IMG/VR virus record: IMGVR_UViG_3300037247_001786
Location: 320,001 to 384,000 of that record
Origin: a virus
Lineage: Duplodnaviria > Caudoviricetes
DNA: 64,000 bases
Direction: 5' to 3' (one strand)
Part shown: positions 3,423 to 56,035 of the stretch, in pieces
Numbering within the stretch: position 1 is the stretch's first letter
How the letters are laid out: the number at the start of each line of letters is the position of its first letter
Notes under the pieces: generated by a model
Database searches by the model: none
What the model was told of the DNA's origin: nothing
Seen by the model: the letters and a program-made list of their open reading frames with translations, nothing else
Position numbers and translations under genes: made by a program

Positions 3423-4655
3423 ATGAAAGATTTAGTTAAGACAATTAAAAAAATAAGCAAGAGACACCCAGGATATCTAGGAGATTTTTTGCCTATAAGA
3501 TTATTGAAGTATAATTTCTTGAAGAGAGGTTTAGATAGAGAAGTTAAAGCTGACATGGTGAATGTACAGTCTCATCCACAGTTTCCTCATCTAAAAATAT
3601 ACAAGTACTCTCAAGACGCAGTTTGCGAAAGAAATTGGAACGAGATAACTCTTATAGCTAGAGGTCTGATAGTAGATACAGAAGCTAAAAAAGTTATAGC
3701 TACTCCTTTTGTAAAATTCTTTAATTATTCAGAGTTGATACCTATCGCTGAAATAATGGAAAAAGAATTTGTTGCTTTAGAGAAACTTGACGGATCAATG
3801 GGTATATGCTTCTTTTACGAGAACAAATGGAGAATAGCTACTTGCGGTTCTTTTGCTTCTGAGCAGTCTCAGTGGGCTAATAAATATTTTGCAAAGTATA
3901 TACAAGATAGGCATCTTGAAGAAGATACTACATACTTATTAGAAATAATATACCCAGAGAATAAGATAGTTGTTCCTTACTCAAAAGAAACTTTATGTTT
4001 GTTATCAGCTTACAGAAAAGGTTACGAGTTAGAGAAAAAAGAGTTAGATATAGTGGCTTTTAAATCTGGATTTTCTGTTCCAGAAACTTATGACTTTAAT
4101 AAATTGGATAAGATATTACACGAAGCATCTATCATAGATCATACTCAAGAAGGTTTTGTAGTTAGGTTTAAGTCTGGTGTTAGAGTTAAGATAAAAGGTG
4201 ACGAATATTGTCGTATCCATAAGTTGATATCTAGAGTAACTCCTATTGCCGTATGGGAGATGTTGGTAAGCGGCGATGATATGGAATCTGTGAAAAAAGA
4301 TCTTCCAGAAGAGATGGAGTTCGACTACGATAACATAGTTTCTATCTTAAGAGCTATGTTGCAAGAAACTCTTGACGGTATAGATCATGCTTACGAAGCG
4401 ACAAAACACTTGTCTGATAAAGAACTTGGTTTGGACTTGTCTAACAAAGAATCAGAGTATCTTAAAGACGAGATAGTGAAACAATTTAAGTCTTATATTT
4501 TTCCTAGGAGAAAAAACACATTTGAGGAGCAGTTCAATGATGTTGATTCTTTGATGAGAAGGAAGATATTTAAGTTGTTTAGACCTAAGAGCAACTTTTT
4601 AGAAGGGTACGTTCCTTCTTCTGCTATGAACAGGTTTCAAGACGGAGTGAATTAA
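3423..4655 (+). CDS. RNA ligase, T4 Rnl1-like
   Basis: ARGLI...PFVKFFN, motif I EKLDGS, EIIYPENKIVV, EGFVV, RVKIK. Confidence 0.9.
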   Translation: MKDLVKTIKKISKRHPGYLGDFLPIRLLKYNFLKRGLDREVKADMVNVQSHPQFPHLKIYKYSQDAVCERNWNEITLIARGLIVDTEAKKVIATPFVKFFNYSELIPIAEIMEKEFVALEKLDGSMGICFFYENKWRIATCGSFASEQSQWANKYFAKYIQDRHLEEDTTYLLEIIYPENKIVVPYSKETLCLLSAYRKGYELEKKELDIVAFKSGFSVPETYDFNKLDKILHEASIIDHTQEGFVVRFKSGVRVKIKGDEYCRIHKLISRVTPIAVWEMLVSGDDMESVKKDLPEEMEFDYDNIVSILRAMLQETLDGIDHAYEATKHLSDKELGLDLSNKESEYLKDEIVKQFKSYIFPRRKNTFEEQFNDVDSLMRRKIFKLFRPKSNFLEGYVPSSAMNRFQDGVN

Positions 4656-21252: not shown

Positions 21253-22134
21253 ATGGAAGATCGTTTTATCGGCAAGCGTATTGGAAGAGTTGTAGTATTA
21301 AAGCAGATTGGTGTCAAAAAGAAAAGAAAAGCTTACGAATGCCTATGTTCTTGTGGGAAAAAAGATATATTAAGTTCTGATCAATTATCAAGAAATAAGA
21401 ATCCTGGGTGTAAGAAATGTAGCCGTAGAATTAAATTTACAGATTTAAAAGGGCAAAGATTTAACAAATTAGTAGTTATAAAAGAAGATGTAAGTTATAA
21501 AGGTAACGGGGTAAAATGGCATTGCCTCTGTGACTGTGGGAATAAGACAGTCGTTTTGTCGGGGTCATTAAAAAACGGACATACAAAATCTTGCAGTTGC
21601 TTACAAAAAGAAAAAGTCAGTAAAATAAAAGTTAATTTAACAGGACAGAAATTTGGGAAATTAACAGTTATAAAAAAAGAGCCCGAGAACGCTAAGTGGC
21701 TGTGCAAGTGTGAATGTGGCAATGAAGTTATTACTCGCTCAACGTCTTTGTACTCTGGGGCGACGAAGTCTTGCGGTTGTATTCGTATAGAAATGCACAC
21801 CGGCCCAAATAGTAGATTTTGGAAAGGTGGTATAACTTTAATTAATAGGGGTATTAAAAAATCTTCTAAATATTGGAAGTGGGTAAGATATGTAAAAAAA
21901 AGAGATCAATATACTTGCCAATGTTGTTCTTTGCAAGCAATTAGTAAGAAATTACATGCTCATCATATAAGAAATTTTGCTGATAATATTGATGTAGCTT
22001 TTGATACTAATAATGGGATTACTCTATGTGAGGGATGCCATAAAAAATTTCATGCTGTTTATGGAAAAATTAAAACAGATAATAAACAATTAACGGAATT
22101 TATTAAAAATGAAAAAATCAAAAATAAAACTTGA
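21253..22134 (+). mobile_element. Free-standing HNH homing endonuclease with three Cys-rich repeats
   Basis: 3x G..FGKL.V...W.C.C.CG repeats; C-terminal YTCQCC..LHAHH..NGITLCEGCHKKFH; overlaps start of next gene. Confidence 0.85.
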
Positions 22135-23113
22135 AGATATTGGTTTCTATACCTTATATGAAGAGAGGTGTAAATATGCTAATGCGACAAGCCCTATGAT
22201 TAGAGCGGAACTTATTATAACTAGTTTTTGTAATTTTAATTGTCCCTACTGCCGAGGTATGAGAGAAGAATGTAGAGGCGACATGTCATTATTCCAAGCT
22301 CTTCGAACCATTTATTTTTGGACAGATGATAACCTCAAAAACATTCGCTTCTCAGGAGGAGAGCCAACTCTTCATAAAGGTTTAATGGATATGGTTCGCT
22401 ATGCTAAAGAAAGAGGAGTAGAAAGAATTGCTCTCTCCACAAATGGTAGTGCGAAAACAGAATTATATGATGAACTTGTCGAAGCTGGCGTTAACGATTT
22501 CTCGATTTCTTTAGATGCCTGCTGCTCAACTTATGCAGATAAAATGGCTGGCGTTGACGGTCAGTTCCAAAAAATTATTGATAATATTAAGTATCTTTCA
22601 GAGAAGACTTATGTAACTGTCGGCGTTGTGTTTACCGAAGAAACTGTTGATAGTATTGTAGAGGTTATACAATTGGCTAATGACTTGGGCGTATCTGATA
22701 TTCGTATCATCTCTGCTGCTCAAGAGAGTGAAACATATTTCAAATTTTCAAAGTCAGTTTCTGTCTTCGGCACAGGTTTCAGAAAGAGATATCCTATATT
22801 AGCGTATAGGTTAGAAAATATCGAAGAAAATGTTCCTGTCAGAGGTTTGATAGAGAGCGATTCTCATAGATGCGGTTTGATGACAGATGACAGTATGGTT
22901 GCTGGTAAGTGGCATTATCCTTGCATCATACATTTCAGAGAGGGAGGAGACCCTATCGGAGAAGTTGGTCCTAATATGAGAAAAGAGAGAATAGATTGGT
23001 TAAAGACACATGATACCCACTCTGATCCTATCTGCAAAAAAAATTGTTTGGATGTATGCGTAGCATATAATAACAGATTCGCAAAATATTCTGGCATGAG
23101 AAAGAATATTTAA
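22109..23113 (+). CDS. Radical SAM protein
   Basis: CNFNCPYC, GGEPTLH, STNG, ISLD; extra C-terminal Cys. Confidence 0.9.
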   Translation: MKKSKIKLEDIGFYTLYEERCKYANATSPMIRAELIITSFCNFNCPYCRGMREECRGDMSLFQALRTIYFWTDDNLKNIRFSGGEPTLHKGLMDMVRYAKERGVERIALSTNGSAKTELYDELVEAGVNDFSISLDACCSTYADKMAGVDGQFQKIIDNIKYLSEKTYVTVGVVFTEETVDSIVEVIQLANDLGVSDIRIISAAQESETYFKFSKSVSVFGTGFRKRYPILAYRLENIEENVPVRGLIESDSHRCGLMTDDSMVAGKWHYPCIIHFREGGDPIGEVGPNMRKERIDWLKTHDTHSDPICKKNCLDVCVAYNNRFAKYSGMRKNI

Positions 23114-38469: not shown

Positions 38470-39636
38470 ATGAAAGTAAATAATCAAGAAAAAAATATTA
38501 TGGATATACATAAATACTTGAGAAATAATTTGGGGCAAAGAAAAATGAACTATGCTGTAAGAGTAACTGACTTTTGTAATTTGGACTGCGAATACTGTTA
38601 TGCAAAAACAGATGTCCCTCATAATATGGACTTTAGGACACTACATAAAGTCATGGACAGAATATGCGAATACGCAGAAAAGGATGATGACAAGAATATC
38701 ACTATCAACTGGACAGGAGGAGAACCTTTCCTCCAAGGCGTAGATTTCTTTCAAGAGATAGTCAATATACAAAATGAATTAACAGATTACACTTTTGAGA
38801 ATGTCATACAAACAAATCTTACACTGTTGGATATGCATTTCTTAATCTTTTTTGATAATAATAATTTCAAGTTAAGAACAAGTCTTGATTTGCCAGCAGA
38901 GATTCATAATGAACGTAGAATTCGCGACCGGAAGTTTGATGGTTTTAAAAATACACTCGCTAAAATTCGTATACTTCAAACAAATGGTATTTCAATTAAT
39001 GTAAATACCGTCATCACAAGTCAGAATGTTCACAAAGCACAAGAGATATACGCATTCCTTAAAGAGAATAAGATAACAAGTTTTTCTGTTTCTAGGTTTG
39101 TCCTACAAGGCAATGCTTGCGACCACGAAGGACTGCTTATCGCGGAGCCTGGTCAATTCGGTAGATTTCTTATCGAACTATACGACCTTTGGAAAGCTGA
39201 TGTAGATGGTTGTCTTGAAAGAATTACCCCACTAGATAACCTCGAAAATGCTTGTAAATTCTATCTCGAAAAGATAGACTATGCCAAGGCTTGCTTCCAT
39301 TGTCAAGACCAGATATTTGCTATCGACCCGTATGGTAAGGTCTTTTCATCTTGTAATAAATTCTTGGCTCATAAGGATACTTGCTTCGGCGACATCAAAA
39401 CCGATACGCTCGAAAATATAATGAACTCGGAGAAGCGACAAGCCTTTCTAAAGAAGGTTACGAGTTCTACTGGTAAAGTATGCCCAACTTGTAAATATGC
39501 TCCTATATGTAAAGGTGGTTGTTTCTTCTTGGCATATACGGCGAAGTTAGATGGGAACTTGGATAGAGAAGATTTCTGCAAAGGTTACTACTTTGTATTT
39601 GAACATATCATTAAATATTTGGAAGGACAAGAGTAA
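38470..39636 (+). CDS. Radical SAM/SPASM-domain protein (anSME-like)
   Basis: CNLDCEYC, WTGGEP, QTNLT, SLD; SPASM C..C...C....C..C....C.GGC...C. Confidence 0.9.
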   Translation: MKVNNQEKNIMDIHKYLRNNLGQRKMNYAVRVTDFCNLDCEYCYAKTDVPHNMDFRTLHKVMDRICEYAEKDDDKNITINWTGGEPFLQGVDFFQEIVNIQNELTDYTFENVIQTNLTLLDMHFLIFFDNNNFKLRTSLDLPAEIHNERRIRDRKFDGFKNTLAKIRILQTNGISINVNTVITSQNVHKAQEIYAFLKENKITSFSVSRFVLQGNACDHEGLLIAEPGQFGRFLIELYDLWKADVDGCLERITPLDNLENACKFYLEKIDYAKACFHCQDQIFAIDPYGKVFSSCNKFLAHKDTCFGDIKTDTLENIMNSEKRQAFLKKVTSSTGKVCPTCKYAPICKGGCFFLAYTAKLDGNLDREDFCKGYYFVFEHIIKYLEGQE

Positions 39637-40706
39637 TGGACAAGCCCGTATTAGGCTCACTTAAATTAGCGTTAGGTTATGATTGTAATTTAAAATGCGG
39701 ATTCTGCCTGCAACAAAATGCCGACAAATCTCCGAAATTAGATTTTGCGGATGTACAGAAAATCATGCAAGAAGATATGGTCAAAAGTGATGTAAAACGC
39801 ATTACCATTACCGGAGGAGAGCCTACTCATGAACCGTATATAGATACAGCCGCTACAATTGTAGAATTGGCTAGTCGAATGGGAAAAGAAACTTGTATCT
39901 TTACCAATGGTGTTCTTCTTGATGACGATATGCTAGGCATGTTTAAGTATATGGGGCTTACTCGCTTCAGAGTTAGCTTGTACGACCCGATCGATTGGAA
40001 ATGGGTCAGAGACCTCATGAAGAGACTTAAAGCTCACGATTTCCCACGCATGGCTAAATATACAGTTACCAAAGAGACCATCGGAAACATCGATGAAGTA
40101 CTTCATAATGTAGCTAATAAAACTGGCATTGAGTGGTTCCAAGTAAAACCATATAACAGAATTGAAGTTCCAGAAGTTGATGCTCAATATGAACTTGAGC
40201 CTGATCAAGTATTTGAACTTTCAGCGAAACTTCTTAAGTTTAAAATGGAAGAGCCTCAAATCAAAGTTGACTTGCTCCCTCTCTGTTATGAGTTCCTCGT
40301 AGATAATACTATCAAGGCAGAGGATATTAGCCCTTGTAATTGTGGTCAAGGCAAAGAGGGTTATCTTGTGGTTACTCCAACTGGCGATGTAAAGATATGC
40401 GGTGCGTATCCTGTAGCTTTGGGTAACATCAAAACAGATACCATTACAGACATTTGGGAAAACCACCATCTTCTGAAAGAGGTAAGAACAAGAACTCAGC
40501 CAGAACAATGTAAAGATTGTGATCATTGGGAAAAATGTAAGAAGAATGATTGCCACTCAGCGACTTATGCGATGCATGGCGATTTCAAACATGGAAACCC
40601 CCAATGTCCTATCATCAAGAAAAAATATGCGAAATACGCAGGAAAAATAACTAATTTAACGCATGACGAATGGGATGATAAACTAGAGAGAATGGGAAAA
40701 ACATAA
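39636..40706 (+). CDS. Radical SAM/SPASM-domain protein (PqqE/MftC-like architecture)
   Basis: CNLKCGFC, ITGGEP, FTNG; CNCG...TPTGDVKICG...LGNI...CKDC..W..C...CH...CP. Confidence 0.9.
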   Translation: MDKPVLGSLKLALGYDCNLKCGFCLQQNADKSPKLDFADVQKIMQEDMVKSDVKRITITGGEPTHEPYIDTAATIVELASRMGKETCIFTNGVLLDDDMLGMFKYMGLTRFRVSLYDPIDWKWVRDLMKRLKAHDFPRMAKYTVTKETIGNIDEVLHNVANKTGIEWFQVKPYNRIEVPEVDAQYELEPDQVFELSAKLLKFKMEEPQIKVDLLPLCYEFLVDNTIKAEDISPCNCGQGKEGYLVVTPTGDVKICGAYPVALGNIKTDTITDIWENHHLLKEVRTRTQPEQCKDCDHWEKCKKNDCHSATYAMHGDFKHGNPQCPIIKKKYAKYAGKITNLTHDEWDDKLERMGKT

Positions 40707-54132: not shown

Positions 54133-54203
54133 AGGTCGGTAGTGTAATGGTAGCACGGCGGTCTCCAAATCCGCAAATTAGGGTTCGACTCCCTACCCTC
54201 CTG
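54133..54203 (+). tRNA. tRNA-Trp(CCA)
   Basis: Loop CT CCA AA; two acceptor mismatches. Confidence 0.8.
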
Positions 54204-54206
54204 TTT

Positions 54207-54295
54207 GAAGAGGTAGCTCAGTTTGGTAGAGCGTCAGTCACGTCTGGCCAGACTATGAAATCTGAAGGTCGCAGGTTCGAATCCTGCCCTCTTCA
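54207..54295 (+). tRNA. tRNA of undetermined identity with 15-nt hairpin insertion in the anticodon loop
   Basis: Perfect GAAGAGG/CCTCTTC, GCTC/GAGC, GCAGG-TTCGAAT-CCTGC; 22-nt loop containing GTCTGGCCAGAC. Confidence 0.75.
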
Positions 54296-54298
54296 TTT

Positions 54299-54372
54299 GG
54301 GTATGAAGCTTATGAGGTAAAGCACTCGGCTTTTAACCGAGAGTTTTGAGGGTTCGAATCCCTCTATACCCA
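54299..54372 (+). tRNA. tRNA-Lys(TTT)
   Basis: CTCGG CT TTT AA CCGAG. Confidence 0.9.
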
Positions 54373-54536: not shown

Positions 54537-54944
54537 ATGAGATACTCTAAAAAGAGATTAGCTATGGGAGAAGAAGACTGGGTAGAATACCAAAAAGAGA
54601 GAAAAAATAACAAAGCTAAACATTGGAAAAGGAAAAACGCTGATAAAGTAGTGAATTGGAGGCGAAGAGCCAAAATTAAACTTATTCACTATAAAGGTGG
54701 TAAATGTTTAAAATGTGGATATAATAAGGAAATAGCTTCAGCTTATGATTTCCACCATAGAGACCCCTCTGAAAAAGAATTTGGAATAGGAGGAAAAACT
54801 CTTGCCCTGGAAAAATTAAAAAAAGAAGCTGATAAGTGTGATTTATTGTGTAAGCTATGTCATATGGAGATACACGAAGAAGAATATCAAGAACAAAGAG
54901 AGAGAACTATTAAGGAATGGTCAGCACTAGCTGACAGAATATAG
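54537..54944 (+). mobile_element. HNH endonuclease within tRNA array
   Basis: GGKCLKCGY...DFHHRDP..KEF...KCDLLCKLCH.E.H. Confidence 0.85.
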
Positions 54945-54948
54945 ATTT

Positions 54949-55038
54949 ACCCAGGTACGCTAATTAGGTAAGCGGAATGGCTGTTAACCATTTGTATCCC
55001 GTTCAATCGGTATGGAGGTTCGATCCCTCCCTTGGGTG
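54949..55038 (+). tRNA. tRNA-Asn(GTT) with long variable region
   Basis: AATGG CT GTT AA CCATT; 21-nt variable region with CCG-TTCAAT-CGG hairpin. Confidence 0.85.
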
Positions 55039-55040
55039 TT

Positions 55041-55921: not shown

Positions 55922-56035
55922 GGGAACGCTGACATTAATATAGAAATATGATTAAGCTTTATGTGGCGAGTCAGCCTATAATCGTATGTATAGGTACTTT
56001 TGATAGTTATGTAGGTTCGAATCCTGCCGTTCCCA
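55922..56035 (+). ncRNA. 114-nt tRNA-like RNA with greatly expanded D loop
   Basis: GGGAACG/CGTTCCC, CTGAC..36 nt..GTCAG, CCTATA/TATAGG, GTAGG-TTCGAAT-CCTGC. Confidence 0.65.

Follow-up and report, generated by a model that had tools for sequence, protein, structure and literature searches.

A tRNA-shaped gene with an invariant palindromic hairpin in its anticodon arm in a lineage of marine megaphages

Introduction

Huge phages carry dozens of tRNA genes, a growing number of which have unexplained inserts in the anticodon arm. In the Lak megaphages (genomes >450 kb) 'enigmatic' inserts in the anticodon region of tRNA genes are highly conserved and belong to no known self-splicing class; these introns were recognised with tRNAscan-SE run in its eukaryotic mode, and insert-free alleles served as a check on where they are excised, which gave a defined anticodon (Devoto et al., 2019; PMC6784885). 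A related architecture has been engineered: in the tRNA scaffold of Ponchon and Dardel the anticodon stem-loop is swapped for a hairpin such as the MS2 operator, and the resulting chimera is processed, stable and protein-binding in E. coli (PMC3753655). Some jumbo phages also encode a Ro/TROVE protein with a tRNA-like partner (PMC7824862).

The subject of this study, here labelled gene X, is an 89-nt tRNA-shaped RNA gene at positions 54207–54295 (plus strand) of a 64,000-nt stretch of phage DNA, the whole of which is referred to as the window. Like the Lak genes, X has an insert in the anticodon region of a tRNA gene within a huge-phage array. It differs from them in that no insert-free allele of it occurred in 13 kin arrays, the anticodons implied by excision disagree, and the insert is of 15–19 nt with an invariant palindrome. 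The engineered scaffold shares the architecture of X, with the acceptor, D and T arms kept; being man-made, it shows feasibility and not function. YrlA/Y RNA (RF02553) is comparable in that a tRNA-like module is joined to a protein-binding helix, but the topology of X is not permuted and TROVE/Ro (PF05731) is absent from the complete phage genome; matches to RF02553 scored 28.3 and 20.4 bits against a cut-off of 69 bits, and straddled tRNA borders.

Three further comparisons can be made. T4 RNA C and D are small, stable, tRNA-like RNAs, devoid of an anticodon, that lie inside a phage tRNA cluster and are processed with the tRNAs; in X, by comparison, the canonical tRNA body is complete and only the distal part of the anticodon arm is different, the likeness being one of description. 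Group I introns have a catalytic core of more than 200 nt, and the insert of X is 15–19 nt long with no match to an Rfam intron. Bulge-helix-bulge introns, spliced by EndA/Sen in archaea and eukaryotes, have two 3-nt bulges with a 4-bp helix between them. With archaeal and eukaryal introns X shares a short anticodon-arm insert that pairs with the anticodon region and a 3-nt bulge at the anticodon stem, but it has a single 3-nt bulge, a helix of 3–4 bp (3 bp in two members) and then a 1x2 internal loop in place of a second 3-nt bulge, and its position is not 37/38.

Results

A canonical tRNA body with a hairpin in the anticodon arm

The genome that carries the window, from a giant marine-sediment phage, is complete (460,978 bp, direct terminal repeats, 34% G+C) and contains 37 tRNA genes by ARAGORN, 33 of them in one plus-strand array. 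Gene X lies in this array in the order Trp(CCA)-X-Lys(UUU)-Pro(UGG), the genes being 3, 3 and 6 nt apart. Its upstream neighbour tRNA-Trp(CCA) occupies 54133–54203 and its downstream neighbour tRNA-Lys(UUU), which served as the anchor for finding kin, 54299–54372, both on the plus strand. Given this packed spacing with canonical tRNAs, X must be co-transcribed with them and freed by their end-processing enzymes.

The acceptor (GAAGAGG/CCTCTTC), D (GCTC/GAGC) and T (GCAGG/CCTGC) stems of the window copy are all Watson–Crick on reading of the sequence, as had been claimed for them, and no CCA is encoded. The gene is recovered by ARAGORN, by our covariance model R1 and by the Rfam tRNA model RF00005, which scores it at 60 bits (gathering threshold 29 bits) and fits 24 nt into the 9 model positions of the last anticodon-stem pair and 7-nt loop. 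Run without introns, ARAGORN reports an undefined tRNA. Against the Rfam families nothing beyond tRNA was matched at E ≤ 1 except noise, a promoter and terminator scan gave no signal specific to the insert, and neither Rfam nor the literature yielded a family or paper describing the element. A hammerhead-like reading of its GAAA motif was discarded, the core being absent and Rfam giving no match.

The proximal 4 bp of the anticodon stem, helix 1, pair TCAG (54234–54237) with CTGA (54262–54265). Between these strands lies a distal element of 24 nt (54238–54261) that replaces the last stem pair and the 7-nt anticodon loop. An earlier reading made from the sequence alone had given a 22-nt loop, which is correct if a T·T pair is counted as closing; otherwise there are 24 nt between the Watson–Crick TCAG and CTGA strands. 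The fold proposed in that sequence-only reading (TCAG/CTGA, an AAT bulge, TCA/TGA and a hairpin) is the minimum-energy fold of the arm when the cloverleaf stem is enforced. In the constrained folds, helix 2 pairs TCA (54238–54240) with TGA (54256–54258), as also in the pair table, and is followed by a 1x2 internal loop (C54241 opposite TA54254–54255) and by the palindrome GTCTGGCCAGAC (54242–54253), which forms an apical GUCU/AGAC hairpin with a GGCC loop; a 3-nt bulge (AAT, 54259–54261) on the 3' strand separates helix 2 from helix 1. All of these parts are on the plus strand. The description of the arm as a relaxed bulge-helix-loop was not supported, since there is no second 3-nt bulge and cuts at the expected positions leave no canonical loop.

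Palindromes of 12 nt are common, with 154 in the 461-kb genome, where GTCTGGCCAGAC itself is single copy. The signal beyond chance therefore lies not in palindromy per se but in the invariance of this sequence across five diverged lineages, as described below.

Independent assembly and relatives of gene X

This DNA was present in public runs from two studies. A contig of run X4, from the one that is not its likely source, covers 54207–54330 with 0 differences and 0 gaps, so that the identical insert was recovered in a separate assembly and an assembly artefact, raised earlier as a possible explanation, does not account for it. A second X4 contig (54213–54283) has eight substitutions and no gap, indicating that a diverged strain has the same insert length; one loose end has tRNA-Trp fused straight to tRNA-Lys, a relative without X. 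No DNA joint skipping the insert was seen in these public-run contigs.

Relatives were sought by several routes. Against GenBank phages megablast found nothing and sensitive blastn generic tRNA matches only. In IMG/VR, an exact DNA pattern of the tRNA body with a variable anticodon region had no match, nor had ATPase and RNA ligase protein anchors; a 508-aa ATPase anchor recovered three kin fragments whose records are without the tRNA, and the small HNH ORF led to non-syntenic loci. Homologues (66–78% identity) of a KaiC-like ATPase encoded 2.5 kb upstream were found on contigs with syntenic arrays (Val, Glu, Phe, Gln, Trp, a slot, Lys, Pro, Asn), and a 20-nt pattern from the nearly invariant downstream tRNA-Lys gave 83 further metagenome loci (L-numbers). 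BLAST of X against all loci matched the insert, but not the body, in L063 and L039, and L030 and L095 were added by inspecting the sequence upstream of every anchor. The four homologues score 40.6–46.7 bits with RF00005 and each lies directly upstream of tRNA-Lys; tRNA-Trp precedes X in L063 and L095, the contigs that reach far enough. Over 554 kb of phage arrays, model R1 scored the five members at 84–99 bits (window copy 99) and the next match at 58, revealing no further member and no variant hairpin. The palindrome with 1 mismatch did not occur in three long megaphage records. A pattern of palindrome plus T-loop had 3 matches in IMG/VR and 42 in GTDB (185,579 prokaryote genomes), none in a tRNA context, and these matches are chance.

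The Trp–Lys slot was inspected in 13 distinct kin arrays. Five contain X (window, L030, L039, L063 and L095), always with the palindrome; in another five the slot is empty or a short spacer (L013/L041, L062, L072, L146, L149), and in one array each it holds an unrelated tRNA-Arg(GCG) (L015/L016/L071), a non-tRNA spacer (L037) or an HNH endonuclease gene (L010/L011). The comparison with homologues lacking the insert that had been suggested as a check thus returned no insert-free allele of X in any of the 13. The HNH gene in the slot encodes 209 aa (L010:14342–14971, the same at L011:7464–8093; phrog_1271, E=2.7e-19) and does show that the Trp–Lys junction is a place of gain and loss.

Two candidate relatives were rejected. 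The L037 spacer as a decayed X has an identity of 0.46 against 0.48 for shuffles, leaving an 11-nt match at the start alone, and for the tRNA-Arg(GCG) of L015/L016 as an insert-free orthologue, differences in the acceptor and T arm mean that orthology is not supported. Elsewhere on these contigs, a 74-nt tRNA (L015:10099–10172, equivalent to L016:9518–9591) has an 8-nt anticodon loop, TTTGAACT, for which ARAGORN reports the 4-base anticodon tgaa; its D arm resembles those of the L030 and L063 copies of X, and it could be a distant insert-free relative of X or a quadruplet-type tRNA.

Conservation of the fold and of the palindrome

Across the five members 24–26 nt lie between the 4-bp stem strands. 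The flanks from stem to palindrome measure 4 nt (5') and 8 nt (3') in the window and L063, and 5 and 9 nt in L030, L039 and L095, so that the 3' flank equals the 5' flank plus 4 in all five; this is exactly what helix 2, the 1x2 loop and the 3-nt bulge together predict. With the cloverleaf stem enforced, the window, L030 and L063 share one fold, in which the 4-bp stem is followed by an A-rich bulge of 3 nt in the 3' strand, then by helix 2, the 1x2 loop, and GUCU/AGAC with its GGCC loop. Helix 2 is UCA/UGA, extended in L030 to UCAA/UUGA (4 bp) through a compensated one-nucleotide insertion in each strand. The bulge is AAT or AAA in four members and longer in L039, which has a shifted version of the arm; L095 is without helix 2 and has the apical hairpin alone, one pair longer. 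In the constrained folds the would-be anticodon UGA(A) is base-paired in 4/5 members. Unconstrained folds of the whole molecule were mixed, with alternative pairings that are not conserved, and the window copy prefers another local pairing.

Between the five contigs the neighbouring canonical tRNAs are 66–83% identical. For X, mean pairwise identity is 64% in the body versus 82% in the distal element; in the stem columns it is 57%, with 11/40 columns invariant. The four cloverleaf stems are nevertheless paired in 96/100 cells (96%), 13/20 pairs having changed on both sides, and helix 1 in 19/20 cells, with three of its four pairs compensatory. The palindrome is identical at 12/12 positions in all five members (rough probability 2e-7 at the stem rate), although conservation here rests on five sequences and with an invariant hairpin the constraints of structure and of sequence are inseparable. 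The paired stems and their compensatory changes indicate that selection acts on the RNA: in the body it maintains the fold, and at the tip of the anticodon arm it is stronger and operates on the sequence itself. A recent transfer of the insert is unlikely, given that no two members share the 4-bp stem next to the distal element (TCAG, GCAG, CTCG, ACGG and GCGG).

Gene X is thus a real, selected accessory gene that occupies a fixed slot in a lineage of marine megaphages. That it arose through faulty assembly, or is a tRNA gene no longer alive, we consider very improbable. No usable anticodon loop is encoded as such, and the slot is empty in several kin, making the gene dispensable for some lineages; however, the separate assembly is identical, and five lineages keep a compensated cloverleaf and an invariant insert at RF00005 scores of 40–60 bits. 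The idea of a one-off insertion in a decaying body likewise fails, with four diverged homologues retaining both features.

Excision does not restore a conserved anticodon

In a functional decoder a 5-bp anticodon stem closes a loop of 7 nt that has U33 and presents a defined anticodon. X, with 24–26 nt between the strands of its 4-bp stem, has no anticodon that is conserved after excision. Allowed introns, ARAGORN removed 17 nt from the window copy to give the loop TTGAAAT and Phe(GAA), a solution that puts a G·A pair at the upper end of the stem and drops nucleotide 26; it called UGA in L030 and L063, nothing in L039 and a non-intron structure in L095. A manual parse with standard numbering, in which nucleotide 26 is kept, the stem has 5 bp and the variable loop 4 nt or more, gave UGA for L030 and L063, GAA for L039 and AAU for L095, and left the window copy with nothing canonical. 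The earlier assertion that no simple excision gives an obviously canonical loop has to be qualified by the near-canonical Phe-GAA solution that ARAGORN found; apart from this and minor differences in counting, the earlier description of the gene is correct. No-intron folds from ARAGORN, in which a stem is built from half the palindrome (Arg-ACG, Val-AAC, Thr-AGT), were set aside, not being conserved between members. According to bacterial identity rules a class-I body cannot be tRNA-Ser; Phe(GAA) is already present in all the arrays, and Ser(UGA) also in the window and L063.

These results bear on the possibility that X is a pre-tRNA with a short protein-spliced intron, in which a non-EndA endonuclease would read the hairpin and remove 15–19 nt, and the phage kinase and ligase would heal and seal the loop to yield a decoder, Phe-GAA in the window copy. 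This is the chief alternative to a non-decoding RNA; we think it unlikely, although several observations fit it. In each member excision can produce a 7-nt loop that has U33 and, at position 37, a purine, as from a true intron; the insert pairs with the would-be anticodon, as in archaeal and eukaryal pre-tRNA introns; and UGAAA 3' of the hairpin is retained in 4/5 members. Against this, anticodon and register vary by member (GAA, UGA, AAU), the window copy would need the G·A pair and the loss of nucleotide 26 noted above, and L030 and L063 could read GAA only with a 3-nt variable loop. No fixed cut distance from the hairpin yields 7-nt loops in both flank classes, and the product would duplicate tRNAs that every array contains. 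Further, no insert-free allele was found in the 13 kin arrays, and the 'exon' is less conserved than the 'intron', the reverse of what a spliced decoder predicts. Of the two options first put forward for X, an intron-bearing tRNA or a translation-inert mimic, both survive; the evidence leans to the mimic because the hairpin is more conserved than the would-be anticodon, the anticodons produced by excision differ and no insert-free allele was found.

The phage gene complement

The phage encodes a sigma-70-type factor, from a family that among our controls matched bacteria only, and this points to a bacterium as the host; together with a bacterial-type CCA-adding enzyme (a domain of the CCA-adding/poly(A)-polymerase family within an open frame of 814 aa at 268.7 kb of the genome, L156) it led us to take the host to be bacterial. 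To our knowledge, bacteria lack EndA. EndA (PF01974) was not found in the complete phage genome in a search for which archaeal controls were positive, and RtcB and RNase III were likewise absent from it, leaving no endonuclease candidate in the phage for removal of the insert.

Enzymes that could seal spliced exons are nonetheless present, and to that extent favour an intron: a T4 Rnl1-type RNA ligase (window 3423–4655, plus strand; phrog_562, E=8.6e-55; PF09511), and an Rnl2-type ligase with two adjacent AAA_33 P-loop kinases of 304 and 194 aa (genome ~281.6–284.5 kb, L154:195–3125), in addition to the CCA-adding enzyme. By itself this set is no sign of splicing. A ligase and kinase complement like this one is the standard tRNA-repair set of jumbo phages (PMC7824862), and repair explains it equally well. 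The window also contains three radical-SAM genes (phrog_1802, QueE-like; 22109–23113, 38470–39636 and 39636–40706) that may encode nucleic-acid modification enzymes.

The palindrome as DNA

A perfect 12-bp palindrome, single copy in the genome, could instead act as DNA, either as the site of a dimeric protein or as a plug or mini-element, left behind by homing endonucleases, by which a nuclease target within a spare tRNA gene is broken up. HNH endonuclease genes abound in the array (54537–54944 and 58215–58913), and in L010/L011 one of them occupies the Trp–Lys slot itself. The nearest to X (54537–54944, plus strand; phrog_2255, E=2.5e-24) begins 240 nt downstream but is not linked to it: a 59%-identical orthologue is found at the same place in L013, which is without X, and L063 has X with no ORF nearby. 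A homing cassette would also pair the nuclease with a partial palindrome-bearing tRNA copy, and such co-occurrence was not found; X is a complete gene rather than a piece copied from a neighbour, its best identity to any array tRNA being 0.75 and spread over unrelated tRNA types. In the non-palindromic flanks a compensated indel preserves an RNA helix, and all stems covary, neither of which a DNA site needs; with the stems diverged by 43%, a neutral plug would have drifted too. Finally, unlike a mobile element, the sequence occurs nowhere else in the genome or in 554 kb of other arrays. Taken as DNA, a role for the palindrome is improbable.

Discussion

Our leading explanation, held tentatively but favoured over an unconventional intron, is that X is a non-decoding, tRNA-scaffolded, protein-binding hairpin. 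The lack of EndA, RtcB and RNase III in the phage, the unfixed anticodons and the lack of an insert-free allele all favour a non-decoding RNA. On this explanation it is the anticodon arm, rather than any decoding role, for which X would be made and kept. Its acceptor, D and T arms make up an ordinary tRNA body that should stabilise the RNA, and host RNase P and 3'-end enzymes would excise it from a polycistronic transcript like any tRNA, as suggested by the 3-nt spacers to tRNA-Trp and tRNA-Lys. The anticodon arm is lengthened to ~12 irregular base pairs, and the invariant palindrome that tips it would be the working part, most likely read in a sequence-specific manner by a phage or host protein that probably forms a symmetric dimer. 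X would thereby serve as a ligand, a decoy or a cofactor built on a tRNA scaffold. The conserved fold with its compensatory changes, the invariant palindrome and the unconserved would-be anticodon are observed, while the absence of decoding, the binding of the hairpin by a protein and the effect of such binding are inferred.

Certain observations run counter to a scaffolded hairpin. Loops of decoding type can be obtained by excision from every member, L095 lacks helix 2, and the genome has genes for ligases of the Rnl1 and Rnl2 types and for P-loop kinases. Inserts in other tRNA genes of this genome and in Lak megaphages, which carry unexplained tRNA introns of their own (PMC6784885), hint at a general removal system. 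Were X to contain a protein-spliced mini-intron, which we think unlikely, it would be of a kind with the Lak introns. It is also possible, but not probable, that the hairpin is the recognition element of a new sequence-specific RNA-binding or RNA-cutting protein, with X serving as a natural tRNA-scaffolded decoy or cofactor in phage–host conflict or as the substrate of a new tRNA splicing pathway, catalysed by proteins, in a bacterial virus; in the latter case a hairpin-specific endonuclease would cut first, followed by healing and sealing by the phage Pnk and Rnl enzymes.

The X family is an unusually clean test case for anticodon-arm inserts, being short, in a fixed slot and preserved in five diverged lineages with an invariant 12-nt element that can itself be used to capture a partner protein or to detect a cleavage activity. 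Should a partner be found, it would define a new class of phage regulatory or decoy RNA on a tRNA scaffold if X is non-decoding, or the first protein-dependent tRNA splicing system of the bacterial world if X is spliced.

Other atypical tRNA genes

Several other tRNA genes of unusual form were noted. A tRNA-Asn(GTT) gene of 88–93 nt, at the same array position in several kin (window 54948–55039, L013:13836–13924, L015:7130–7222, L149:5920–6007), has a stem-loop of ~20 nt in the variable region; such a class-II-like extra arm is unusual on tRNA-Asn. A paired long variable arm was also reported by ARAGORN for an 85-nt tRNA-Thr(TGT) (window 57811–57895). At 62465–62555 lies a 91-nt tRNA-like gene that shares sequence with the beginning of a 125-aa ORF (62467–62844); ARAGORN assigns it a 6-nt loop with a 2-base 'anticodon', tg, and a long extra arm in which pairing is weak. 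By sequence inspection the 114-nt tRNA-like sequence at 55922–56035 has an AT-rich insert of ~36 nt in the D-loop region.

Outside the window, two over-long tRNA-like genes (109 and 90 nt) are called by ARAGORN with introns on the minus strand of the same genome (32000–32253), their inserts being unrelated in sequence to the palindrome. In other megaphage arrays, some from genomes of ~490 kb, many full-length tRNA-model matches are 118–144 nt long, corresponding to inserts of 45–70 nt; over-long matches include L019:6424–6548, L092:6096–6218, L029:1538–1655, L022:3975–4094, L020:1038–1166 and L031:8002–8454. Inserts in tRNA genes look common in huge-phage arrays.
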